Shown here: one piece after another, positions 364 through 38,340 of the stretch
Numbering within the stretch: the first letter of the stretch is position 1
Layout of the letters: each line of letters begins with the position of its first letter
Source: Oscillospiraceae bacterium
GTDB lineage: Bacteria > Bacillota_I > Bacilli_A > Erysipelotrichales > Erysipelotrichaceae
Length of the DNA stretch: 57,165 nucleotides
Direction of reading: 5' to 3'
NCBI GenBank assembly: GCA_963619285.1
Contig: CAVEWG010000007.1
Coordinates: forward strand, 1 to 57,165
Program-made: the position numbers and the translations under genes
Notes under the pieces: generated by a model
Told to the model about the DNA's origin: nothing
Seen by the model: only the letters and a program-made list of their open reading frames with translations
Databases searched by the model: none

Positions 364-1876
364 CTATCATGACCTCTCTTACTTTTAATGTGAATATCGA
401 TAATACACTGATGATTGTGCTTATGATTATTACTATTATTTCAATACCAGCAATCTTTAATAGTTGTGAATTATCAATGTTTATCTGTAGATTATTGATA
501 GCTTTTATACTATCTGTATAATCTAGAGTTTTGTTTTCTACTGTGAAATTATTTATTGAATCAATGTTTTCAAATAGTGTGACTAGATGCTTGCTAAGAA
601 GGGAGGAAACAACTATAGCAAGTACTAGCGCAATTAATGATACTAATATATATTGTATAGTTAGTTCTATCATTAACGATGTTTTACTTTGGCCTAAGGA
701 GGATAGTAGGCCAATTTCTTTCTTTCTTCTATTTAAGTCTAAGTTAATTATTAAGATATAAAGAATAATTGTTGCCACTAGTGCGAACTTAAACAAGAAA
801 TTAGTATTATTAGATATGGCTTCTATGTTGCCTGCAAAACTATAATATGAATCAAGTGATGTTTCATATTTTATATTCTTACCATCCATTGTGTTTAACT
901 CTTGCATATAGTTGATAAATTCTTCGATATCTTCGAAGTCCGAAAGGGTTGCGATACATGGCATAAATAGATAATAGGTATTACTGTAATCAACTTTTTT
1001 AGCTTGATCATACATTTCCATGAATAGCTTTTCAGGGATGATGGCGCCATCTTCAGCAAAATGATTGCTGTTTGGAGTGAAGTAAATTCTATCATTTAAA
1101 ATACCGATTACTTCTAAATCGTATGTTTTGTATATTTCTATATCTCCATCGCTAGGCAACATAATTGAATAAGATATATAATCACCAACATCTACTTTTT
1201 TAATTTGGCCATCAACGTATTGATAAGTTTTTGGTGTAACAACACACACTAGGCTGCCTCTTTCTATTTCGTCATCGCTAAACGTTCTTCCTTTTTGAAT
1301 TTTTGTGTAATTTATTATCGTTTCCTCTCCATCTTTGTATGTATGATAATTATATTTATAGTGAATAATTGAAAAATCGCTATTTTGGCAACTAAATAAT
1401 TTAAAGGGAGAAAAATACGGAGCATTATCGTTTTTATACTCATCGAACGTAGATATTTGTTCTATGTCATTAAAATCGCCTGTTCTATTAGCTTGTTTTA
1501 CTTCTTCATAATTACCGTAAAATGCAAGACCATATACTTCACCATAGGCCTTTATAGGAGTGATATTAGGAAAACTCAAATTTATATCCATATACTTTGG
1601 ATTAAACTTATTTTTTACATCTGTTAAATCGGCATAATATTCTTCTGAAACTGCTTGTACAGTGCTTTTATCATTTTGAAGACTTCCAAAAGTAACGTTA
1701 CTGCTTAAGGATACGAGCGATTTTACACTTTTTGTTAAACTACTTTTTACCTCATTACCGACATTTTTAAAAAAATAGCTAGAACATAATAAGCAGGAAA
1801 TAACAAACATCACCACTAGAAGTAGTGATGTTTGTCTAAGCCTATTAATGATTGATTTATAAATGCGACTAATCAT
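356..1876 (-). CDS. MacB/FtsX-type ABC transporter permease
   Basis: 506-aa ORF with an N-terminal TM helix, a ~320-aa extracytoplasmic domain and three C-terminal TM helices. FtsX-like motif RRKKEIGLLSSLGQSKTSL. ATGA overlap with the upstream ORF and overlap with the downstream ATPase. Confidence 0.85.
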   Translation of the reverse strand: MISRIYKSIINRLRQTSLLLVVMFVISCLLCSSYFFKNVGNEVKSSLTKSVKSLVSLSSNVTFGSLQNDKSTVQAVSEEYYADLTDVKNKFNPKYMDINLSFPNITPIKAYGEVYGLAFYGNYEEVKQANRTGDFNDIEQISTFDEYKNDNAPYFSPFKLFSCQNSDFSIIHYKYNYHTYKDGEETIINYTKIQKGRTFSDDEIERGSLVCVVTPKTYQYVDGQIKKVDVGDYISYSIMLPSDGDIEIYKTYDLEVIGILNDRIYFTPNSNHFAEDGAIIPEKLFMEMYDQAKKVDYSNTYYLFMPCIATLSDFEDIEEFINYMQELNTMDGKNIKYETSLDSYYSFAGNIEAISNNTNFLFKFALVATIILYILIINLDLNRRKKEIGLLSSLGQSKTSLMIELTIQYILVSLIALVLAIVVSSLLSKHLVTLFENIDSINNFTVENKTLDYTDSIKAINNLQINIDNSQLLKIAGIEIIVIIISTIISVLSIFTLKVREVMIDE

Positions 1877-2328
1877 GGTAAATAAAATGTATGCTGATGA
1901 GTTATGTATTTTGCTGATCCGTTTATTGTTTCTTTTACTCTTGATGAGACAACAATCTTTACAGAGTTTCCGGATTTAGACGTGTAATAAGTAGTGTTAA
2001 CAACGGTGACGCTATAAGTTCCATCTTGAGGACCGGAATTGTCATTTACACCAGTTGTACAACTTGATACACTAACATTAGATGCGAATGCAGATCCAGA
2101 ACTATCAACTCCGTGATAATATGTACCCGAAACTCTAAATTGTACTTGATAGCTATATGTTCCATCAGTATATGTTGTATAGTCTGCTGCGTATTTACTG
2201 AACGGTTTTGTAATACCTGCTGGCATTATAGGATAATTGTCTTCATCAGCGAATGAACTAGCACATGGTGCAACAAAAGAAATCGTCAACACTATCAAAC
2301 ATGTGCATATTGACTTGAAAAGTTTCAT
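1873..2328 (-). CDS. Small Sec-secreted beta-rich protein of unknown function (candidate secreted effector or bacteriocin-like protein)
   Basis: 151-aa ORF with signal peptide MKLFKSICTCLIVLTISFVAPCASSFA|DED. The mature part is rich in T/S/Y/V/G. SD GGAGG (complement of 2336-2340). First gene of an operon with the permease and ATPase. Confidence 0.7.
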   Translation of the reverse strand: MKLFKSICTCLIVLTISFVAPCASSFADEDNYPIMPAGITKPFSKYAADYTTYTDGTYSYQVQFRVSGTYYHGVDSSGSAFASNVSVSSCTTGVNDNSGPQDGTYSVTVVNTTYYTSKSGNSVKIVVSSRVKETINGSAKYITHQHTFYLP

Positions 2329-2421
2329 AACTTAACCTCCTTGAAACTTAATAGTTTATGTTGCAACACTTACTATTTATGTCTTAATTATAACGTTTAG
2401 CTTAATTCTTGCCTATTGACA

Positions 2422-2447
2422 AAAAGTTTATAAGGTATTAACTTTTT
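2422..2447. promoter_or_regulatory. Imperfect 26-bp palindromic box between the LysR gene and the secreted-protein operon (copy A)
   Basis: Plus strand reads AAAAGTTTATAAGGTATTAACTTTTT. By manual alignment it is 23/26 identical to the perfect palindrome at 37709-37733. Outer complementary arms are CCTAT 2412-2416 and ATAGG 2452-2456. It abuts a TTGACA hexamer (2416-2421) facing the LysR gene. Confidence 0.55.
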
Positions 2448-2468
2448 GTTCATAGGTGGGATAACAAT

Positions 2469-3365
2469 ATGAAATATGAAGATTTAGGTATTTTGTTAAC
2501 TTTAGATGAGTGTGAAAGTATCAATAAAGCCGCTAATAAACTTTTTATGTCACCAACTGGGCTAAGTAAAAAAATTAGTTCATTAGAAAAAGAACTAGGG
2601 ACATCATTGTTTAAACGTACGGCAACAGGGTGTGAACTAACAGATAATGGAAAAATAGTTTTAGAGTATACAAAAAAGATTAACGATTTAATCGATGAAT
2701 GTAAAGATAAAATAAAATCAAACGACACTTTAAAAGTAAGAGTAGGCTTTTCTTTTTTATATGATAGAGAGTTCTTTAAAATAATATTAGCAGCTAATAG
2801 ATTTATTGATAAACAATATATTTTTGAACCTGTTTCAATGGATAATGTTTTCTATGAAAAATCTGTCGAAAATCTTTTTTCATGCATAGGGAACTCGATT
2901 GATATGTTATTAGACATAGAAGGAAATAGAAATAATAAAGAGTATATTTCATTGCCTATTGCCGAAAATAGAATATGTCTTCTTGTTCCGAGAGGACACA
3001 AACTATATAAAAAAAGAAGCATTAAAATTGAAGATTTGGCAGATTTAAAAATTCTTAAATTTGCAGACGGTTTTTATGAGTCTGCTGATAAGACTGTAAA
3101 ACACATAAAAGATAATTGCAAAAATGTTGTTTTTGAAGATTTGACGGACTATTTTGATAGCGTTGGCACTTATTGTGTAAATAATAATTTGGTATTTTTA
3201 TGTATAGATTCTTATAGATCAGTAGAGCCAAATGAGAGACTAATACCTTTAGATTTTAGTGATCCTATTCCGTTTTGTATGATATATAGAAAAGACAGTC
3301 CCAAAGAATTGGTTGATATTATTAAAAGTATATATAAAATAATCAAGAGAAGAAGACGTCGTTAG
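2469..3365 (+). CDS. LysR-family transcriptional regulator
   Basis: 298 aa. N-terminal winged HTH typical of LysR (LTLDECESINKAANKLFMSPTGLSKKISSLEKELGTSLFKRT) plus a ~200-aa co-inducer-type domain. Divergent from the 2328 operon. Confidence 0.85.
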   Translation: MKYEDLGILLTLDECESINKAANKLFMSPTGLSKKISSLEKELGTSLFKRTATGCELTDNGKIVLEYTKKINDLIDECKDKIKSNDTLKVRVGFSFLYDREFFKIILAANRFIDKQYIFEPVSMDNVFYEKSVENLFSCIGNSIDMLLDIEGNRNNKEYISLPIAENRICLLVPRGHKLYKKRSIKIEDLADLKILKFADGFYESADKTVKHIKDNCKNVVFEDLTDYFDSVGTYCVNNNLVFLCIDSYRSVEPNERLIPLDFSDPIPFCMIYRKDSPKELVDIIKSIYKIIKRRRRR

Positions 3366-3434
3366 CAGGTAAAAAGCACTTCCTTCTTTACAAGAATGTT
3401 AAAATAAATAAGGTTAGAAAGAAGGAATTTATTT

Positions 3435-4436
3435 GTGATAAATGTTTATATTATTTCAGGATTTTTAGGTGCTGGCAAGACTACTTTCATCAAGAAATTA
3501 TTAAGTGAAAAGAAGTTTAAAAAAGTAATGCTTCTTGAAAATGAATTTGGTGAAGTTGGAGTAGATGGCGCTTTTTTTGATTCAGCATTAAATGTAAAAG
3601 AAATCAATAATGGTTGTATTTGTTGTTCTTTAAAAGGCGACTTCAAGTCAGCTCTAGAAGAAATTGAAGACATGGACGTAACTGACTTACTTATCGAACC
3701 ATCAGGTGTAGGTAAACTATCAGATATCTTAAATGTTGTAAAAGAAGATGAAGACTTTAGAGTTGTTTCTCATATTTGTATCGTCGATGTTAAGACATGT
3801 AAGAAGTATCATAAGAACTTCAAAGATTACTTTGATGATCAAGTAAAAGCAGCGAACGCAATTGTTTTATCACATGTTGATGTTGCTGGAGATAAGATTG
3901 AAGAAGCTAAGGAAATTGTTAAAGAAATTAATAATGATGTAACTATTATTGATAAAGCTATTGAATTCTATACAATTGATGAATTAATGGATTTAATTGT
4001 AGCTGGAGCAGATATGGGGTTCGAATCTGAAGAGGAAGAAGATGAACATTGCTGTTGCTGCTGTTGTAGTGGGGAAGGCCATGAACATCATCACCACCAT
4101 CATGACCACGATCATGAAGAAGAGGAGTTTGAATCTGATGAGGAGCATAAACATCACCACCACCATCATGATGATGAAGATGAATTGTTCAAGAATCAAA
4201 TTGTAAGAACTGATTATGTATTTACTAAGGAAGAACTTGAACAGATATTAAGTAATGTAGATGAAGATATTATTCGTATTAAGGGATATGTTAATACAAA
4301 AGAGGGTACTATGTATCTAAATTATGTATTGAATGAATATCATTTATATTTAGGCGAGAAAAGAGATAACGCTATAGTTTCAATTATTGGAACAAGTATT
4401 GATAAGAATAAGTATAAAGAGGCTTTCCATGGATAG
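3435..4436 (+). CDS. COG0523/CobW-family metallochaperone GTPase with a Cys6/His-rich insert
   Basis: GTG start with SD GAAGGAA upstream. P-loop GFLGAGKTT, CxCC metal motif GCICCSLKGD, then HCCCCCCSGEGHEHHHHHHDHDHEEEEFESDEEHKHHHHHHDDEDE and a CobW_C-like tail. Confidence 0.85.
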   Translation: MINVYIISGFLGAGKTTFIKKLLSEKKFKKVMLLENEFGEVGVDGAFFDSALNVKEINNGCICCSLKGDFKSALEEIEDMDVTDLLIEPSGVGKLSDILNVVKEDEDFRVVSHICIVDVKTCKKYHKNFKDYFDDQVKAANAIVLSHVDVAGDKIEEAKEIVKEINNDVTIIDKAIEFYTIDELMDLIVAGADMGFESEEEEDEHCCCCCCSGEGHEHHHHHHDHDHEEEEFESDEEHKHHHHHHDDEDELFKNQIVRTDYVFTKEELEQILSNVDEDIIRIKGYVNTKEGTMYLNYVLNEYHLYLGEKRDNAIVSIIGTSIDKNKYKEAFHG

Positions 4437-5337
4437 ACCAATCTATGTTGTTTCAGGGTTTATAGATTCAGGAAAGACTACTGCTATTAAAAGAACTTTA
4501 TTAGATCCTCGTTTTACTGAAAAAGAGACTACTTTAATCATTTCTTTTGAAGAAGGCGATGAAGAATATGATAAGGAATTCTTAAGTCAAACTCATAGTA
4601 GTGTAGTTTACATGGACTTTAAGGATTTTGATGCAAATAAGTTATTAGAACTAGATGACATCTATAATCCAGATCGTTTCTTTATTGAGTTTAATGGCAT
4701 GGATGATGATTCTGCCTTAATGAATATGGATTTACCTTTAGGTATGGAATATGCTCAACTTATTTGTACAATTGATGCATCTAAGTTTAAGTTGCAAGTA
4801 GGCAATATGCCTCAGTTCATGTTTAATCATGTAAATGCGTGTGAGATTATTGTCTTAAATAGATATGAAGGAGCTGACTTTAGATATCTTAGAAACAATA
4901 TCAAGAGCATGAATCAATATTGCGCTATTGGTCTAGAAGATAAAGATGGCAATATGTATGAAATGCCAAAAGATGATTTGTTTGATAAAAACAATCTAGA
5001 TATCAATGATACAGATTATGGATTGTTCTATATGGACGCTATTGATAATTATCAAAAATATAATGGTGCGCCTATTAAATTTAATGGCTTTTATCTAGAA
5101 GGCGATAAAGAAACTAAAGTAATAGGTAGATACGCTATGGTATGTTGCGCTAATGATACTCAAAGACTTGGTATGATGGTTAAGGGTTTAAAACAAGACT
5201 TAGAAGTTAATCATTATTATCATATAGAAGGTATCTTTAGAGTAAAGAATGAAAGAGGTGGCATTAGAATCTATATCGAAGGTAAGAATGCTGCTGAAAT
5301 AGAGAAACCGAAAGAGGAGTTTGTAAACTTTAACTAA
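4429..5337 (+). CDS. P-loop (CobW-like, no CxCC motif) protein fused to a DUF1980/YcgQ-like C-terminal domain
   Basis: I take ATG 4429, which overlaps the upstream stop TAG 4434-4436. N-terminus MDRPIYVVSGFIDSGKTTAIKR. The C-terminus GRYAMVCCANDTQRLGMMVKG...HIEGIFRV...EIEKPKEEFV resembles the CC-A-x-D motif region of DUF1980 (from memory of the family). Confidence 0.65.
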   Translation: MDRPIYVVSGFIDSGKTTAIKRTLLDPRFTEKETTLIISFEEGDEEYDKEFLSQTHSSVVYMDFKDFDANKLLELDDIYNPDRFFIEFNGMDDDSALMNMDLPLGMEYAQLICTIDASKFKLQVGNMPQFMFNHVNACEIIVLNRYEGADFRYLRNNIKSMNQYCAIGLEDKDGNMYEMPKDDLFDKNNLDINDTDYGLFYMDAIDNYQKYNGAPIKFNGFYLEGDKETKVIGRYAMVCCANDTQRLGMMVKGLKQDLEVNHYYHIEGIFRVKNERGGIRIYIEGKNAAEIEKPKEEFVNFN

Positions 5338-6461
5338 TGTCACTGTGGGGATTATTTTTAGAAGGACTATTATCTTTCTTGTCGCCATGTGTATTGCCAA
5401 TGGTTCCTTTATATATGTCTTATTTGGCAACAAATAAGAATAATAAAAAGATAGTTGTATTCTTGAATTCATTATTCTTTGTCTTGGGCTTAAGTGTTAT
5501 ATTTCTAATACTTGCCTTGGCTATAGATACAATAAAACCATTAATAGATGAATATTCTACTATTATTACTTTAATAAGTGGAATTATTATTATCTTATTT
5601 GGCTTACATGAAACAGGACTTATCACCATATCTGTAAACATAAGACAAAAAGATATTAGCATGGACACCACTAACATGAACTTTATTAAAGCTTTCTTGT
5701 TAGGATTCTTGTTTTCACTTGTAATATCACCATGCATTGGACCAATGTTATCAAGCGCGATACTACTTGCAGCATCTAGTAAAGTAGGTGGACTATATAT
5801 ACTTGTATATGCGCTTGGCTTACTTATTCCATTTTTTATAACAGGCTTATTTACAACATCTATTGTTTCGTTTCTTAAGAATAAAAAGAATGTCTTAAAA
5901 TATGTAGGAATTGTAGCAGGCATTATCCTTATTGTCTATGGTGGGTATATGACTGCTAATAGTTCAAAAGAGATTTTGAGCCTTAAGAATAGTACCGCAG
6001 CACCTACAAATGAAGAAGAAAGTAGTCAAACTGCTTCAAATTATTTACCAGGAAATGATTTTTATGATCAAAATGGCAATATAATTCATTTAAATGATTA
6101 TAAAGGTCAATATGTAATAATGAATTTCATTGCGACATGGTGTACTTATTGTATAAATGAGATACCAGAATATTTAGAATTTGCTAAAGCTCATGATGAT
6201 ATTAAATGTTTCTACGTAATGTCACCAAGTAGTAGTAGTGTAAGTAAAGAAGAAATAATTTCCTTTATTGAAGAAAAGGGTATAGATATAGAAGTAATAA
6301 TAGATGAAGATGATGTGCTCTATAATCTATGTAATCCAAGTGCTTTTCCAACCATGTTTGTGGCAAGTAAGGAAGCTGAGATACTTGGGTATGTATCTGG
6401 CGCCTACGATTTAGAAGGATTTAATTCAATACTTGATACTGTAAAAGAACAATATGATTAA
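5337..6461 (+). CDS. CcdA/DsbD-type thiol-disulfide transmembrane domain fused to an extracytoplasmic thioredoxin-like (TlpA/ResA-type) domain
   Basis: 374 aa. Membrane Cys motifs LSPCVLPMVP and SPCIGPML in a 6-TM region. C-terminal WCTYC thioredoxin motif. The ATG overlaps the upstream TAA by 1 nt. Confidence 0.8.
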   Translation: MSLWGLFLEGLLSFLSPCVLPMVPLYMSYLATNKNNKKIVVFLNSLFFVLGLSVIFLILALAIDTIKPLIDEYSTIITLISGIIIILFGLHETGLITISVNIRQKDISMDTTNMNFIKAFLLGFLFSLVISPCIGPMLSSAILLAASSKVGGLYILVYALGLLIPFFITGLFTTSIVSFLKNKKNVLKYVGIVAGIILIVYGGYMTANSSKEILSLKNSTAAPTNEEESSQTASNYLPGNDFYDQNGNIIHLNDYKGQYVIMNFIATWCTYCINEIPEYLEFAKAHDDIKCFYVMSPSSSSVSKEEIISFIEEKGIDIEVIIDEDDVLYNLCNPSAFPTMFVASKEAEILGYVSGAYDLEGFNSILDTVKEQYD

Positions 6462-6488: not shown

Positions 6489-6995
6489 TTAACTAGTGAA
6501 TGTAACTGTTTTTAAAGATTCTTTGACCCAATCTTTATTTTGCGACATAGAATCATAATTGCCGTAAACAAATACACAATAATAAGTGGTGTCATTAAGA
6601 TATAATCCATCAATATTATAATATTTATTATCATTAGACGACGAAGACCTTAGCTTTTTGTTCACAATAACTGTAGCATTATCTTTATTAACTAAGACCT
6701 CAGATTCTTCTTCATTATTCATGTCGGCAATAAACTTTCCCGCCATATCTTTAAATTCAGGCACATCTGTTGAGTATTTGATTTGTTGCGCAACAAGATA
6801 TAACCCATTATCTTCATCTATAAACAAGTAATTTTCATTAGAACTATAATCTTCTATAAAATTAGTGGTTTCATCAACTTTTAGTGTTAAGTCAAAGGCA
6901 CTTATTTCTTTATTCAAATTATAATTGCTGCTTTTACAAGCGGTCCCTAATATAAGTAACAGAATAATGGATAAGATAGAAAAGGTCTTTTTCAT
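6489..6995 (-). CDS. Hypothetical lipoprotein
   Basis: 168 aa. Lipobox LILGTAC|KSS after a hydrophobic signal. SD GGAGG upstream (complement of 7006-7010). Confidence 0.7.
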   Translation of the reverse strand: MKKTFSILSIILLLILGTACKSSNYNLNKEISAFDLTLKVDETTNFIEDYSSNENYLFIDEDNGLYLVAQQIKYSTDVPEFKDMAGKFIADMNNEEESEVLVNKDNATVIVNKKLRSSSSNDNKYYNIDGLYLNDTTYYCVFVYGNYDSMSQNKDWVKESLKTVTFTS

Positions 6996-7111: not shown

Positions 7112-8311
7112 TTACTTAATGATTTCAGTAACGTTACCAGAACCTACAGTTCTACCGCCTTCTCTAATAGAGAATTTAGTACCATTTTCAAGAGCGATAG
7201 GAGCGATTAGTTCAACAGTCATTAATACGTTATCACCAGGCATAACCATTTCCATAGCGCCACCGTTGTTATCTTTGATTTCTTCAACAACACCAGTAAC
7301 ATCTGTAGTACGGAAATAGAATTGAGGACGGTAGTTTACTACGAATGGAGTATGACGACCACCTTCTTCTTTAGTTAATACGTAAACTTGAGCCTTGAAG
7401 TTTGTATGAGGAGTAACTGAACCAGGTTTAGCAAGTACTTGTCCTCTTTCGATTTCATCACGGTTAACACCACGAAGTAATGCACCGATGTTATCGCCAG
7501 CTTCAGCTTCATCAAGTTGCTTTCTGAACATTTCAAGACCAGTAATAACTGTCTTTCTTGTTGGCTTAATACCTACGATTTCAACTTCATCATTTAGATG
7601 AGCAACACCACGTTCTACTCTACCTGTAGCAACAGTACCACGACCAGTGATAGTGAATACATCCTCTACAGACATTAAGAATGGCTTATCAGTTTCTCTT
7701 TGTGGAGATGGGATGTATGCATCAACAGCATCCATTAATTCATCAATCTTTTCTTCATAAGCTGCATCGCCTTCAAGAGCCTTAAGAGCAGAACCTCTGA
7801 TGATTGGAGCGTTATCGCCATCGAAACCATATTCAGATAATAATTCTCTTACTTCCATTTCAACTAAGTCGATTAATTCTGGATCATCAACCATATCGCA
7901 CTTGTTTAGGAATACTACGATGTAAGGTACACCAACTTGTCTAGCAAGTAAGATGTGTTCTCTTGTTTGAGGCATTGGTCCATCAGTTGCAGCAACAACT
8001 AGGATAGCACCATCCATTTGAGCAGCACCAGTAATCATGTTCTTTACATAGTCGGCATGTCCTGGGCAGTCAACGTGAGCATAGTGTCTCTTTGCAGTCT
8101 TATATTCAACGTGTGCAGTATTAATAGTGATACCTCTAGCTTTTTCTTCTGGAGCACCATCAATTTGATCATAAGCTTTAAATTCAGCTTGGCCTTTTTC
8201 TGCTAATCTCTTAGTGATAGCAGCAGTTAAAGTAGTTTTACCATGGTCAACGTGACCGATAGTACCAATATTGACATGTTCTAATGAACGGTCAAATTTT
8301 TCTTTTGCCAT
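7112..8311 (-). CDS. tuf: Elongation factor Tu
   Basis: 399 aa, [33 protein letters not shown]...[21 protein letters not shown]. Unmistakable EF-Tu. Confidence 0.99.
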
Positions 8312-8366
8312 TTGTTTTCCTCCTGTTTAGCAAATTAATTTTAAGATAAATCGCACTAATATTCAA

Positions 8367-10463
8367 TTAGTCTTTAGCGTTTTTCTTAGCGATTGATTCA
8401 GCGATGCTCTTTGGAACTTCTGAATAGTGATCCATTTGCATCATATAGTTACCACGACCTTGAGTAAATGATCTTAGGTCAGTTGCGTAACCAAACATTT
8501 CTGATAGAGGTACGTAAGCTCTAATAACGATTGCGTTTCCTCTTTCTTCTTGTTCTCTGATTTGTCCACGACGCTTAGTAACATCACCCATTACAGCACC
8601 TAAGTACTCACTTGGAGCAGTTACTTCAACATCCATGATTGGTTCAAGTAATACTGGATCACATTTTTTAGCAGCTTCTTTTAAAGCTAGAGAAGCAGCA
8701 GTCTTAAATGCCATTTCACTTGAATCGACTTCGTGGTAAGAACCATCGAATAATGTAGCTTTAATATCTACAACTGGATAACCAGCAACAAGACCATTGT
8801 TTAAGGCAGCAATTAAGCCATCTTGAGTAGGTTTAATGTATTCTCTTGGAACTGATCCACCAACAACAGCGTCAATGAATTCAAATCCTTTGCCTTCTTC
8901 ATTTGGTTCAAACTTAATCCAAACGTGACCATATTGACCTCTACCACCAGATTGTCTAACGAACTTACCTTCACAATCTGCAGCTTTTCTAATTGTTTCT
9001 CTAAAGGCAACTTGTGGAGCACCAATATTACATTCAACCTTGAATTCTCTCTTCATTCTATCAACGATGATATCTAAGTGAAGTTCACCCATACCAGCGA
9101 TAATAGTTTGACCAGTTTCTTCATCAGTATATGTTCTAAATGTTGGATCTTCTTCAGCTAACTTAGCTAAAGCAGCGTCCATCTTATCTGAGTCAGCCTT
9201 AGTCTTAGGTTCAACAGACATTTGGATAACTGGTTCAGGGAATACCATTGATTCTAGGATAATTGGGCTCTTTTCATCACACAATGTATCACCAGTAGTA
9301 GTATCCTTTAAACCTACAGCAGCAGCGATATCACCAGCGAAAACTTCTTCGATTTCAGCACGGTGGTTAGCATGCATTTGTACAAGTCTACCAAATCTTT
9401 CTTTCTTATCCTTAGTAGCATTTAATACATAACTACCTGCAGTAGCCTTACCAGAGTAAACTCTGAAATAAGTAAGTCTACCTACGAATGGGTCAGTCAT
9501 TACTTTGAATGCTAATGCAGCGAATGGTTCACTGTCGCTTGGATGTCTTGCTTCTTCTTGTCCATCTAATGTAATACCCTTAATAGAAGGTACATCAAGT
9601 GGAGAAGGTAAGTATTCGATTACTGCATCTAGTAATAATTGAATACCTTTGTTCTTATAAGCAGAACCGCAAAGTACAGGGAAGAAATCAGCACCGATAA
9701 CAGCTTTTCTGATTGTCTTCTTGATTAGATCAACTGGAATTTCTTCACCTTCAAGGTATTTTTCCATTAGATCATCATCATATTCAGATAACATTTCAAG
9801 TAGATCTGTTCTTAATAGTTCAGCTTCTTCCTTGAATTGATCTTCAATATCAGTAACAGAAATATCTGTACCTTGATCATTGTTGTACATATATTGTTTA
9901 CGTTCAACAAGATCAATAATTCCTCTAAATGTATTTTCAGCACCAATTGGCATTTGGATTGCGGCAGCCTTAGCGCCTAATCTATTGCCGATTGATTTAA
10001 CTGACATCATGAAGTCAGCACCTGTAGCATCCATCTTGTTACAGAAAACAATTCTTGGAACACCATATGTAGTAGCTTGACGCCATACTGTTTCAGTTTG
10101 AGGTTCAACACCTGCTTTAGCATCTAAAACAGTTACTGCACCATCTAATACTCTTAGAGATCTTTCAACTTCTACTGTAAAGTCAACGTGTCCTGGTGTA
10201 TCGATAATGTTAATACGATTCTTAGGGAATTGATGGTTTTGGCCAGCCCAGAAAGTAGTAGTGGCAGCACTAGTGATAGTGATACCTCTTTCTTGTTCTT
10301 GGGCCATCCAGTCCATTTGTGAAGCACCATCATGTGTTTCACCAATCTTATGAGTTTTACCAGTGAAGAAAAGAATACGTTCAGTACAAGTAGTCTTACC
10401 AGCATCGATGTGAGCCATGATACCGATATTTCTAGTATTTTCTAAGCTATACTCTCTTGCCAT
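8367..10463 (-). CDS. fusA: Elongation factor G
   Basis: 698 aa, [21 protein letters not shown]...[11 protein letters not shown]. Lies in the rpsL-rpsG-fusA-tuf order. Confidence 0.99.
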
Positions 10464-13020: not shown

Positions 13021-14799
13021 ATGTATTACTCTAGTGGAAACTATGAAGCATTTGCTCATCCAAAGAAGCCTGAAGGTGTTGATCAAAAGTCAGCGTATAT
13101 TGTAGGTAGTGGATTAGCTGCTTTAACAGCTGCTTGTTATCTTGTAAGAGATGGCAAGATGAAAGGTGAACATGTACACATCTTAGAAAAAGGTAAACTT
13201 GCAGGTGGTGCATGTGATGGCTACAAATTTGAAAATATAGGCTATGTTATGAGAGGTGGTAGAGAAATGGATAACCACTTCGAAGTAATGTGGGATTTAT
13301 TTAGAGATATCCCATCCATTGAAACAGAAGGTGTTTCAGTATTAGATGAATACTATTGGTTAAATAAAGAAGACCCTAACTATTCATTATGTAGAGCTAC
13401 TGTTAATAAAGGACAAGACGCTCATACTGATGGCAAGTTTGATATTTCTGATAAAGGTGCTATGGAAATCATGAAGTTATTCTTCACACCTAATGAACAA
13501 TTACAAGATAAGAAGATTAATGAGATTTTTACTGATGAAGTATTTAAATCAAACTTCTGGCTATATTGGAGAACGATGTTTGCCTTCCAAGAATGGCACA
13601 GTGCTCTTGAAATGAAACTTTATTTCCAAAGATATATTCACCATATTGGTGGCTTACCTGATTTTAAAGCATTAAGATTTACCAAGTTTAATCAATATGA
13701 ATCAATGATTCTTCCAATGTGCAAATATCTAGAAGCTCATAATGTTAAGTTCCATTATGGAGTTCATGTAACAAATGTTGAATTTGATTGTTCTAATTCT
13801 AATAACAAATTGGCTAAGAGAATTGATGTATTAGAAGATGGTAAAGAAAATCATATTGATTTAACTGAAAATGATTTAGTATTTATTACTAATGGCGGCT
13901 GTGTTGAAAATTCTACAATGGGTTCTCAAAACACTAAGGCTGAATATAATACCGAGCTTAAAGAAGGCGGTGGATGGGATATGTGGCGTAAGATTGCTGC
14001 ACAAGATCCTTCATTTGGTCACCCTGATAAGTTCTGCTCAGATCCCGAGGCTACAAACTGGATGTCAGCAACCGTAGAAACGCTTGATCAAAACATCATT
14101 CCTTATATCAAGAACATTTGTAAAAGAGATCCATTTACTGGTAAGGTTACAACTGGTGGTATCGTAACTGTTAAGGATTCTTCATGGCTATTATCTTGGA
14201 CTATTAATAGACAACCTCAATTTAGGCAGCAACCAAAAGATCATTGTCTAGTTTGGGTATATTCTCTATTTACTGATAGACCTGGTGATTATATTAAGAA
14301 ACCAATGAGAGAATGTACTGGTAAAGAAATTTGTGAAGAATGGTTATACCATCTAGGTGTTCCTGAAGATAAGATTGAAGAATATGCAACAAATAGCGCA
14401 AATACAGTTCCTGTTATGATGCCTTATATTGATGCCTTCTTCATGCCTAGAGCATATGGTGATAGACCTGATGTTGTTCCTGCTGGTTCTAAAAACTTCG
14501 CATTCTTAGGCCAATTCGCTGAAACACCAAGAGATACAATCTTCACTACTGAGTATTCAATGCGTACAGGTATGGAGGCTGTATATACTCTATTAAATAT
14601 TGATAGAGGTGTTCCTGAGGTTTGGGGATCAACTTATGATATAAGAGACTTACTAAATTCAACTGTTCAATTAAGAGATGGTAAGAAGATTACAGATATG
14701 GAATTAAGTCTTACTGAAAAGTTGGTTCTAAAGAAAGCTCTTAAAAAGATTAAGGGAACAGACATCGAGAAACTATTAGAGGAACATAAAGTTATCTAA
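13021..14799 (+). CDS. ohyA: Oleate hydratase (myosin-cross-reactive antigen family)
   Basis: 592 aa, MYYSSGNYEAFAHPKKPEGVDQKSAYIVGSGLAALTAACYLVRDG. FAD-binding GxGxxA and typical length and N-terminus. TetR neighbour. Confidence 0.9.
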   Translation: MYYSSGNYEAFAHPKKPEGVDQKSAYIVGSGLAALTAACYLVRDGKMKGEHVHILEKGKLAGGACDGYKFENIGYVMRGGREMDNHFEVMWDLFRDIPSIETEGVSVLDEYYWLNKEDPNYSLCRATVNKGQDAHTDGKFDISDKGAMEIMKLFFTPNEQLQDKKINEIFTDEVFKSNFWLYWRTMFAFQEWHSALEMKLYFQRYIHHIGGLPDFKALRFTKFNQYESMILPMCKYLEAHNVKFHYGVHVTNVEFDCSNSNNKLAKRIDVLEDGKENHIDLTENDLVFITNGGCVENSTMGSQNTKAEYNTELKEGGGWDMWRKIAAQDPSFGHPDKFCSDPEATNWMSATVETLDQNIIPYIKNICKRDPFTGKVTTGGIVTVKDSSWLLSWTINRQPQFRQQPKDHCLVWVYSLFTDRPGDYIKKPMRECTGKEICEEWLYHLGVPEDKIEEYATNSANTVPVMMPYIDAFFMPRAYGDRPDVVPAGSKNFAFLGQFAETPRDTIFTTEYSMRTGMEAVYTLLNIDRGVPEVWGSTYDIRDLLNSTVQLRDGKKITDMELSLTEKLVLKKALKKIKGTDIEKLLEEHKVI

Positions 14800-14800
14800 T

Positions 14801-14832
14801 AAACATTAGCCTCTAAACGAGGCTAATGTTTT
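14801..14832 (+). terminator. Rho-independent terminator after ohyA
   Basis: Perfect 13-bp stem AAACATTAGCCTC/GAGGCTAATGTTT with a 5-nt loop and a T-rich tail. Confidence 0.8.
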
Positions 14833-14996
14833 AGCAACATTTTTTATAATTTTTAAATAAAGACTGTTGCTAATTTAAATTCAAGCCAATGAAAACCGTG
14901 CTGAAAATTTATCTTTCTTTTTTAGAAAAATAGATTATAATTGTTTTGACGAAGGAAGACCTGGTCTTCAAACTAGTGAATCGAGAGATTCACTTT

Positions 14997-37653: not shown

Positions 37654-37708
37654 ATAACTTATCAAGAGAGTTTATAATAGCTCTCTTTTTTGTTGGCCCG
37701 TATAAACT

Positions 37709-37733
37709 AAAAGTTAATACAGTATTAACTTTT
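37709..37733. promoter_or_regulatory. Perfect 12+1+12 palindrome upstream of the secreted-protein gene (copy B)
   Basis: AAAAGTTAATAC-A-GTATTAACTTTT, flanked by outer complementary arms CCGTATA 37698-37704 and TATACGG 37740-37746. The centre lies 107 nt upstream of ATG 37828. Copy A is about 106 nt from its ATG. Confidence 0.6.
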
Positions 37734-37827
37734 TGGATATATACGGTATAAATTGTATTTGATAAAATTTATCCATAAATAATATAAGTTGCAACAAAAC
37801 TATTAATTTATACAAGGAGAAATAAAA

Positions 37828-38340
37828 ATGAAGAGATATTGTTCGTTAGTTCTGTCAATGTTATTGGTGTTTGCTGTAACTGGTTCATGTAATGTTTTTG
37901 CAGAAGACGAAGATGATATTGAATTAACTGGTGTAGCATGCCAATATTCAATGTCTTATATTCCAACTTATTTAAAAACAAATCAAAAAGTCCCAAGTAG
38001 CACTGTAACCGGAACAAATAATACGAGTGTAGAACAAAAACAAAGTTTTACGCAATCTAGAACGGTGACTTTTACCGGAAACGTGAGTGTAAAAGCTGAA
38101 AGAGACATAATTACTGGAACGGCCGGGATATCTGCCGAAGCAGGCTATGGTGTTTCAACAACGACTAGTTATACTGTTGAACTTGTTGTTCCTGCCCACA
38201 CTACAATGCATGTTGAAATTGGATCAATGAAAACTACAACATCAGGAAATATAAAGATAATCAATACGGATTGTTCAACAACGAAATCTAGTACTAAAAG
38301 ATTAGAATATACAAGTGGTCCTTATGCAACCTGGTATTAG
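37828..38340 (+). CDS. Small Sec-secreted beta-rich protein with an amphipathic S/T-flanked hairpin (aerolysin/ETX-MTX2-like pattern; hypothesis)
   Basis: 170 aa. Signal peptide MKRYCSLVLSMLLVFAVTGSCNVFA|EDEDD. Residues ~78-120 (TVTFTGNVSVKAERDIITGTAGISAEAGYGVSTTTSYTVELV) alternate polar and apolar. SD AAGGAGA. Confidence 0.65.
   Translation: MKRYCSLVLSMLLVFAVTGSCNVFAEDEDDIELTGVACQYSMSYIPTYLKTNQKVPSSTVTGTNNTSVEQKQSFTQSRTVTFTGNVSVKAERDIITGTAGISAEAGYGVSTTTSYTVELVVPAHTTMHVEIGSMKTTTSGNIKIINTDCSTTKSSTKRLEYTSGPYATWY

Follow-up and report, generated by a model that had tools for sequence, protein, structure and literature searches.

LysR-type transcriptional regulators (LTTRs) act on sites of 50–60 bp in which a recognition-binding site with the motif T-N11-A lies near −65 and an activation-binding site lies at −35; the regulator genes are divergent and autoregulated, with a promoter that overlaps the site (PMC8407307). 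Here we analyze a control module that resembles this layout and that occurs twice in a 57,165-nucleotide stretch of DNA (contig CAVEWG010000007.1 of assembly GCA_963619285.1; this whole stretch is the window below) from a low-GC Firmicute that is uncultured and has been seen only in gut-type metagenome assemblies. Copy A lies upstream of the ATG at 2328 (minus strand) and copy B upstream of the ATG at 37828 (plus strand), before secreted-protein genes 35 kb apart. Each copy carries an operator, a spacer with a −10 hexamer, and a leader block. As judged from its conservation in relatives, the module is real, functional, and bipartite, and it travels with small secreted-protein genes in this lineage. 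We think it probable, with a good deal of room for doubt, that the operator is the site of the LTTR encoded beside copy A, which would activate genes A and B and repress its own gene.

With the divergent LTTR promoters of BenM/CatM, CbnR, OxyR, and the CidR type, the locus shares a divergent regulator gene, here 22 nt from the site, a T-N11-A dyad at a predicted position of about −65 with a weaker dyad ∼22 bp downstream over a poor −35, a regulator promoter inside the site, and a trans target with the same site elsewhere in the genome. It differs from them in that the right half of the recognition dyad abuts the left half of the activation dyad, which creates a perfect central palindrome, in having small secreted proteins, not a metabolic operon, as predicted targets, and in that binding here is predicted. 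We know of no characterized LTTR box that matches the half-site GTATTAAC/GTTAATAC.

Results

Two copies of one module

The preliminary description of this DNA had pointed to a palindrome, a spacer of equal length, −10 hexamers, and a GTTGCAAC block common to the regions upstream of genes A and B, and each of these was found, in the letters themselves and in a MAFFT alignment. In copy B, the box AAAAGTTAATACAGTATTAACTTTT at 37709–37733 is a perfect 12+1+12 palindrome; copy A of the box (2422–2446, minus strand) has 3 mismatches to it, and no match to the box arose in 100 shuffles of the window. Box, −10, and leader align without gaps between the elements, so that their spacing is identical in both copies (39 or 40 nt from box to element, depending on where the box end is set). 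The box centers, 2434 and 37721, do lie 106 and 107 nt from the respective ATGs, and the −10 falls 42 nt from the center in both. When 140-nt regions upstream of the open reading frames (ORFs) of the window were compared by local alignment, A/B ranked first of 1711 pairs; it scored 46, whereas the best unrelated pair scored 21 and the median was 10. Position weight matrices (PWMs) built from all modules for operator and leader found no third copy of either in the 57 kb.

The signal-peptide ends read SSFA|DEDN and NVFA|EDEDD, as first described, and acidic residues just past the predicted cleavage site occur in A, in B, and in a third cargo protein, C, found in a relative. The further suggestion that A and B share an export cassette found no support: the likeness of the DNA stops at the Shine-Dalgarno (SD) sequence, and 39 of 500 shuffles score as high as the signal-peptide coding parts of A and B do against each other.

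Operator architecture and promoters

Orthologous loci, given below by L numbers, were gathered via the A, B, and LysR proteins, and 13 distinct modules were aligned. The operator extends over ∼44 bp and has four alternating half-sites (hs1–hs4), in the form nTATWAAC-N5-GTTAATAC-N-kyATWAAC-TTTTT-nnnAATAG. These combine into three dyads that overlap and are spaced by one helical turn, with centers near −65, −54, and −43 relative to the predicted transcription start site (TSS). The TSS was placed 7 nt past the conserved −10, which occupies the same column in all 13 modules; it falls on an A in each copy (2380 in copy A and 37775 in copy B). The palindrome first noticed corresponds to hs2 plus hs3, and the "outer arms" seen around it are the distal ends of hs1 and hs4. 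The placement of a single site at −55 needs amending: the palindrome is the middle of a four-half-site array.

Copy A (2413–2455, minus strand; PWM score 53.5, shuffle maximum 14.9) consists of hs1 CTATGAAC (2455–2448), hs2 GTTAATAC (2442–2435) followed by the center at 2434, hs3 TTATAAAC (2433–2426) followed by a T-run (2425–2421), and hs4 GTCAATAG (2420–2413). Copy B (37700–37742, plus strand; PWM score 50.7) consists of hs1 GTATAAAC (37700–37707), hs2 GTTAATAC (37713–37720) with the center at 37721, hs3 GTATTAAC (37722–37729) with its T-run at 37730–37734, and a degenerate hs4 GGATATAT (37735–37742). In the alignment, hs1 (TAT.AAC) is conserved as well as the central pair, positions A14, A15, and C16 are invariant, and hs4 is the least conserved half-site. 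The T-N11-A motif is contained in TGAAC-AAAAA-GTTAA in copy A and TAAAC-TAAAA-GTTAA in copy B (general form TWAAC-N5-GTTAA), and this dyad is centered at −65 if the unmapped TSS indeed lies 7 nt after the −10. The dyad formed by hs3, the T5 run, and hs4 is centered at about −43.

The promoter of gene A (2387–2415, minus strand) has a −35 of TAGGCA (2415–2410), a 17-nt spacer, and a −10 of TATAAT (2392–2387), with 10 of 12 consensus matches, and its −35 overlaps hs4. For gene B, an extended −10, TG-A-TAAAAT (TGATAAAAT), lies at 37760–37768 on the plus strand, with the hexamer TAAAAT at 37763–37768; copy B has no usable −35, and no consensus −35/−10 pair was called on its plus strand. An extended −10 without a usable −35 is as expected of an activator-dependent promoter.

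A third promoter lies within copy A. As had been observed, TTGACA is present on the plus strand at 2416–2421, facing the LysR gene; it sits in hs4 and is the putative −35 of that gene. The matching −10, predicted from sequence only, would be TAACTT (2439–2444), so that the core of the box fills the spacer and the −10; the predicted start of the LysR transcript is at about 2451 (plus strand). Across the alignment, TTGACA on the LysR strand (in hs4 or its flank) is found in six of six LysR-adjacent modules and in none of the seven modules that lack LysR, and in the former a TAnnnT hexamer follows 16–17 nt past TTGACA, inside the box. With the LysR promoter embedded in the box in this way, binding would occlude the regulator's own promoter.

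A palindrome of this quality could also be a structured nucleic acid, a cruciform, an RNA hairpin or terminator, or a leader stem-loop, in which complementarity rather than sequence is selected, and the preliminary description had left room for a structured DNA or RNA element. A T-run follows the perfect 12+1+12 symmetry, both window copies do have complementary outer arms (CCTAT/ATAGG and CCGTATA/TATACGG), and the A leader folds AAUAGU/ACUAUU around GUGU-UGCA-ACAU at −11.3 kcal/mol, including a second hairpin (z = −2.1). The complementarity of the outer arms, however, does not persist in orthologues: of the two outermost pairs, one fails to pair in 8 of 11 sequences and the other in 5 of 12. 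The covariation score of the box hairpin with its outer arms (pair counts over the 13 modules) was reached by 86 of 500 shuffles. The leader stem AAUAGU/ACUAUU shows zero compensatory double changes, and the B leader folds at only −2.1 kcal/mol (z = −0.24). Moreover, the TSS inferred for the cargo gene is downstream of the box, no intrinsic terminator was called at either box, and an Rfam search of both regions gave sub-threshold noise only (for example, miRNA hairpin models at 13–28 bits against cut-offs of 45–171). Departures from pairing are tolerated, but changes of half-site letters are not. Operator and leader are thus conserved as sequence and not as pairing, which points to recognition by a protein, and we regard selection on structure as very improbable.

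Conservation and co-location with LysR genes

Between module types, identity is 71–75% in the operator, 33–36% in the spacer, 76% in the −10, and 81–88% in the leader, and the blocks are kept in B orthologues at 67% and in A orthologues at 41–62% protein identity. The module thus stands upstream of homologous genes in relatives with its spacer randomized, and the claim of a conserved, functional control module common to unrelated secreted-protein genes is borne out. The same comparison bears on a simpler account of the likeness between A and B, namely that a promoter duplication, or gene conversion between the two loci, left it behind as a neutral remnant without shared regulation. Only two copies exist in 57 kb, and modules have moved with their cargo between genomic slots (see below), so copying of DNA segments does occur here. 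Against it speaks the block-wise pattern of two conserved islands on either side of a randomized spacer, which is seen in paralogous and orthologous comparisons alike, and the retention of the blocks at the levels of protein divergence just given. Neutrality seems to us a most improbable explanation.

A divergent LysR gene stands next to its putative target in the window, in L039, in L041, in L042, and twice in L040. The orthologues in L041, L039, L040, and L042 are 69, 66, 57, and 54% identical, respectively, to the LysR protein of the window. Each orthologue, and the second paralogue in L040, lies between the A-type operon and the cobW operon, and the box is found 20–25 nt upstream of the LysR ATG in all six of these orthologues and paralogues (the window and four further loci). 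The boxes of the window, L041, and L039 are near-identical; among these three, the helix-turn-helix (HTH) domain of LysR is 88–92% identical, but the effector domain only 58–59%.

Trees of the flanking CobW and FtsX proteins divide the loci into two clades. In clade I (CobW 89–93% identical within the clade), the LysR gene is present, and every A-, B-, and C-type site has an intact box, at divergences that have scrambled the spacer. The loci of clade II (CobW 97–99% identical) have no LysR gene between the box and cobW, and in these genomes, which are incomplete, the box is broken in three independent ways: it is deleted in L033–38, rearranged in L032, and truncated by IS21 in L009. The deletion has replaced the operator with a strong extended −10 promoter (…TTCAAAC…TGTATAAT), the rearrangement is an inverted duplication around ACAGTAATTAC, and the IS21 insertion abuts hs1. 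Clade II boxes also carry substitutions at positions that are invariant elsewhere, and the leader is intact in all of the disrupted loci. Decay of this kind is the pattern expected if the site had lost its reader. The reading of the box as a LysR-type operator, part of the original description, thus gains comparative support both from its position beside every LysR gene of the set and from its decay in the clade that has none at this locus.

In L042 (783–1027), there are two copies of the box. The degenerate one, beside LysR, makes the better promoter (TTGACA-N16-TATAAA), and the well kept second copy adjoins the promoter of gene A.

Several observations weigh against assigning the operator to the adjacent LTTR. 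In some clade II genomes (L007, L029, L030, and L145), the box looks intact although no LysR gene adjoins it. All LysR–box pairs derive from one ancestral locus or its tandem duplicate, so that synteny could explain the co-location. The TSS positions are inferred from −10 hexamers only. The element, at ∼44 bp, is somewhat below the typical LTTR footprint of 50–60 bp. Finally, one B-type box (L010, L017, and L040) has a central spacing 1 nt shorter, which speaks against this assignment if the central dyad is the dimer site; the shorter center fits better if the true dimer sites are the −65 and −43 dyads and not the central palindrome.

These points leave space for a different, unlinked factor, for example a LytTR-type response regulator of a bacteriocin-like or secreted-protein regulon, with LysR being only a syntenic neighbor. 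Boxes of the plantaricin-type LytTR regulators contain GTTAAT. In the module, hs2 with hs4 and hs1 with hs3 also make pairs of direct repeats with a period of 22 bp, of GTTAAT type, in front of a weak −35; small secreted proteins encoded beside ABC (ATP-binding cassette) transporters make up the cargo; and neither copy B nor any of the B orthologues has an adjacent regulator, just as the clade II loci named above retain the box without one. LytTR regulators bind paired direct repeats centered near −60 (PMC4227749). The likeness to the LytTR promoters of AgrA (P2/P3), ComE, and PlnC/D extends to a repeat period of ∼21–22 bp, weak −35 elements, GTTAAT-like cores, and small secreted products that accompany ABC transporters and vary greatly among close relatives. 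Unlike those promoters, however, the site here is dyad-symmetric and not purely a direct repeat, and the linked regulator is an LTTR. A LytTR promoter would have two 9-bp direct repeats ∼12 bp apart and, in its locus, genes for a LytTR response regulator and a kinase. At the loci examined, no LytTR, histidine-kinase, or peptide-pheromone gene was found, the neighbors being LysR, CobW, a DsbD–thioredoxin fusion, FtsX/ABC proteins, YchF, and DUF5684. Moreover, in six of six cases the site contains the TTGACA of the LysR promoter, and it is precisely in the clade whose LysR gene has been lost from this locus that the box decays. A LytTR-type or other unlinked factor is thus an unlikely reader, if clearly a more serious candidate than either structure or neutrality, and the adjacent LTTR is the one that we favor.

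Pattern searches beyond these loci added little. The whole-module pattern gave 16 matches over GTDB representative genomes, with the species of the window not among them, and one match was a true module (L017). Among the matches listed for the box-only pattern over metagenome contigs, nearly all were chance or unrelated TTAAC-rich repeats, and at least one was a true module (L145). In viral contigs, the scan returned two matches of the wrong length, judged to be chance by length alone, and no sign of a link to phages.

The leader block

The second conserved part of the module is a leader of ∼35 nt that begins at about the predicted start site and has the form YRTAAATAGTAA-N2-GTTGCAAC-N1–3-AACTAT. 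In copy A, it reads CATAAATAGTAAGTGTTGCAACATAAACTATTAAG (2347–2381, minus strand), with GTTGCAAC at 2367–2360, or about +14 to +21, and is followed by the SD GGAGG of gene A (2336–2340, minus strand). In copy B, it reads CATAAATAATATAAGTTGCAACAAAACTATTAATT (37774–37808, plus strand; PWM score 41.2), with GTTGCAAC at 37788–37795. The block is a partial palindrome, ATAGT-N3-TGTTGCAACA-N3-ACTAT, from about +3 to +30, with an outer-arm spacing that varies by 1 nt between types.

The leader occurs in every A and B module, including the clade II loci without a box or without LysR. The two parts are also found singly: the C-type module has the box and no leader, and L033–38 in clade II have the leader only. 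Because it is kept independently of both the LysR gene and the box, the leader appears to be a separate unit read by something else. Our preferred guess, based on its partial palindromic form, is that it is the site of a second DNA-binding repressor in the initial transcribed region, at +3 to +30; alternatively, it could be recognized as primary sequence in the mRNA. The roadblock operators lacO1 and leader cre resemble it in having a sequence-conserved partial palindrome at about +3 to +30, but here the arm spacing shifts by 1 nt between types and the factor is only putative.

Two further observations concern leader sequences. In A-type leaders (window 2320–2350, minus strand), AAGUUUCA pairs with UGAAACUU, which covers the start codon and codons 2–3, so that the loop contains the SD. 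The A genes of clade II retain this stem of 8 bp, which has no counterpart in B and is possibly a translational control hairpin. In L015 (6916–7009), from an uncultured Bacilli metagenome-assembled genome (MAG), a similar palindrome, AAAAGTTAAT-TTTT-ATTAACTTTTT, lies 54 nt upstream of GTTGCAAC. Unlike in the modules, GTTGCAAC is there upstream of the −10 (TATAAT), and the resemblance reflects either a distant relative or chance.

Genes at the modules

Gene A (1873–2328, minus strand) encodes a secreted β-sheet protein of 151 residues with a Sec signal peptide and heads an operon for a MacB-type FtsX permease, an ABC ATPase, and a second FtsX permease. Divergent from it, the LysR-family gene (2469–3365, plus strand) encodes the candidate cognate regulator, a protein of 298 residues with an HTH_1 match (E = 1.8e-15), a weak LysR_substrate match, and generic LTTR matches in NCBIfam. 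Gene B (37828–38340, plus strand) follows the intrinsic terminator of a DUF5684 gene (37664–37687, plus strand), which sets the 5′ limit of the B module, and encodes a secreted protein of 170 residues not homologous to A. The end of gene B is overlapped by a gene for a membrane-anchored partner of 172 residues (38315–38833, plus strand), which travels with the B module in other genomes.

The cargo proteins A, B, and C have no match in Pfam, NCBIfam, or PADLOC, and no significant hit came from a sequence-profile search of the PDB with A and B (best E = 0.14 and 0.46). AlphaFold gave a confident model of A (mean predicted local distance difference test score, pLDDT, 82) with a six-stranded β sheet, for which Foldseek found no match in the PDB (best E = 0.024, TM-score of 0.35 or less). 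The model of B is unreliable (pLDDT 51) and too poor for a fold search. In P0017, a B orthologue with 34 member sequences, the mature part is ∼94% identical to that of window B, and the signal peptide, MKKISLLALSLLLLFNTYNLNRVFA, is quite different; this suggests an N-terminal replacement.

Downstream of LysR, one operon (3435–6461) encodes a CobW GTPase that contains a long insert rich in His, Cys, and Glu, a CobW-like protein whose C terminus is of DUF1980/TIGR03943 type, and a CcdA/DsbD–thioredoxin fusion. The His-rich insert of CobW (∼3940–4170) varies between relatives, and the operon's own extended −10, TGTTAAAAT (∼3397–3405), is conserved with and without LysR. These CobW neighbors suggested a Zur/Fur-family box, which we considered and rejected, as spacing and consensus do not fit. 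An AdcR site, a σ54 −24/−12 promoter in the leader, and an extracytoplasmic function (ECF) promoter failed on the same two counts.

Variable cargo in a mosaic locus

That one module can stand before different cargo, another element of the preliminary description, is seen most clearly in L040 (GCA_963661455.1), where three modules lie within 7 kb (7710–10000 and 14560–14900), with a third kind of cargo and a replaced or decayed one. The first, which has the box only, precedes a Cys-rich (CxxC…CxxC) secreted protein of 111 residues and a different FtsX/ABC operon, and is divergent from the second LysR paralogue. The second is a full module in which gene A is replaced or decayed (MKKITM-stop, then unrelated ORFs). 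The third is of B type, with an internally deleted gene B of 43 residues. The unit of B module, gene B, and partner gene lies between tuf and dsbD in L040 and L017, and between the DUF5684 gene and GAPDH in the window and L011.

What the dsbD–tuf slot itself encodes, a small exported or membrane protein, differs from lineage to lineage (window 6489–6995; L040 14074–14719; L007 21–599): a lipoprotein-like ORF of 168 residues in the window, L041, and L039; the B module unit in L040 and L017; and a membrane-anchored protein of 192 residues in clade II. L017 (CAVBAX010000095.1) is filed under a "Candidatus Methanomethylophilaceae archaeon" MAG, yet it carries a bacterial rpsL-rpsG-fusA-tuf operon with the B-type module. 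Its partner protein shares 96% identity with the counterpart in L040 and L010, and the contig is probably bacterial and was binned wrongly.

The A locus is a mosaic as well, as seen when window regions 1836–2300 and 2738–3200 are compared with L041, L039, and L042. Between the window and L041, nucleotide identity is 93–98% in the FtsX and cobW flanks and 90–96% in the module plus the LysR HTH, but 41–60% in the mature part of gene A and 59–70% in the LysR effector domain. In L042, cobW is 91–96% identical in nucleotides, but LysR only 54% in amino acids. The control region is frozen, whereas cargo and sensor domains are hypervariable, and this sharp contrast suggests that the secreted proteins are under diversifying selection. 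Strict co-segregation of the gene A allele with the effector-domain allele was considered and rejected, because L042 combines an L041-type A (81–83%) with a third type of LysR.

Discussion

The observations above can be assembled into a mechanism of a familiar kind. The LysR-family protein encoded at 2469–3365 is the likeliest binder of the operator, and by binding it would activate gene A together with gene B, a target in trans at a distance of 35 kb. Of the dyads, that at −65 with T-N11-A would be the well kept recognition site, and the site at −35 would be the weaker activation site of an LTTR tetramer. The same binding may repress the regulator's own promoter, whose TTGACA −35 lies in half-site 4 and whose spacer and −10 are the box core. 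The cargo promoter, with its weak −35, would thereby be placed under the regulator's control, and the leader would act as a second element read by another factor.

The mosaic structure of the A locus invites a bolder idea, that the module is a fixed "address" of a diversifying secreted-protein system in which the control region and, in the window, L041, and L039, the LysR HTH are kept, while the cargo (the mature part of A, or B, C, and others in its place) and the effector domain are exchanged or diversify fast. We consider this a long shot, less probable than an unlinked reader of the operator. If the effector domain were to sense something specific to the cargo allele, the system would be an LTTR-based specificity circuit, similar to a pherotype, with the leader as a second common checkpoint.

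For the lineage itself, the analysis provides a 44-bp operator, with two copies in the window and three within 7 kb in a relative, for an uncharacterized LTTR of an uncultured gut bacterium. It links a candidate LysR protein with orphan secreted proteins and an ABC transporter of MacB type that would together form a small regulon, and the separable, strongly conserved leader points to a second layer of control. The kind of gene control is familiar and implies no new mechanism; what the locus would add is an extension of LTTR biology to a new class of targets and a new lineage.

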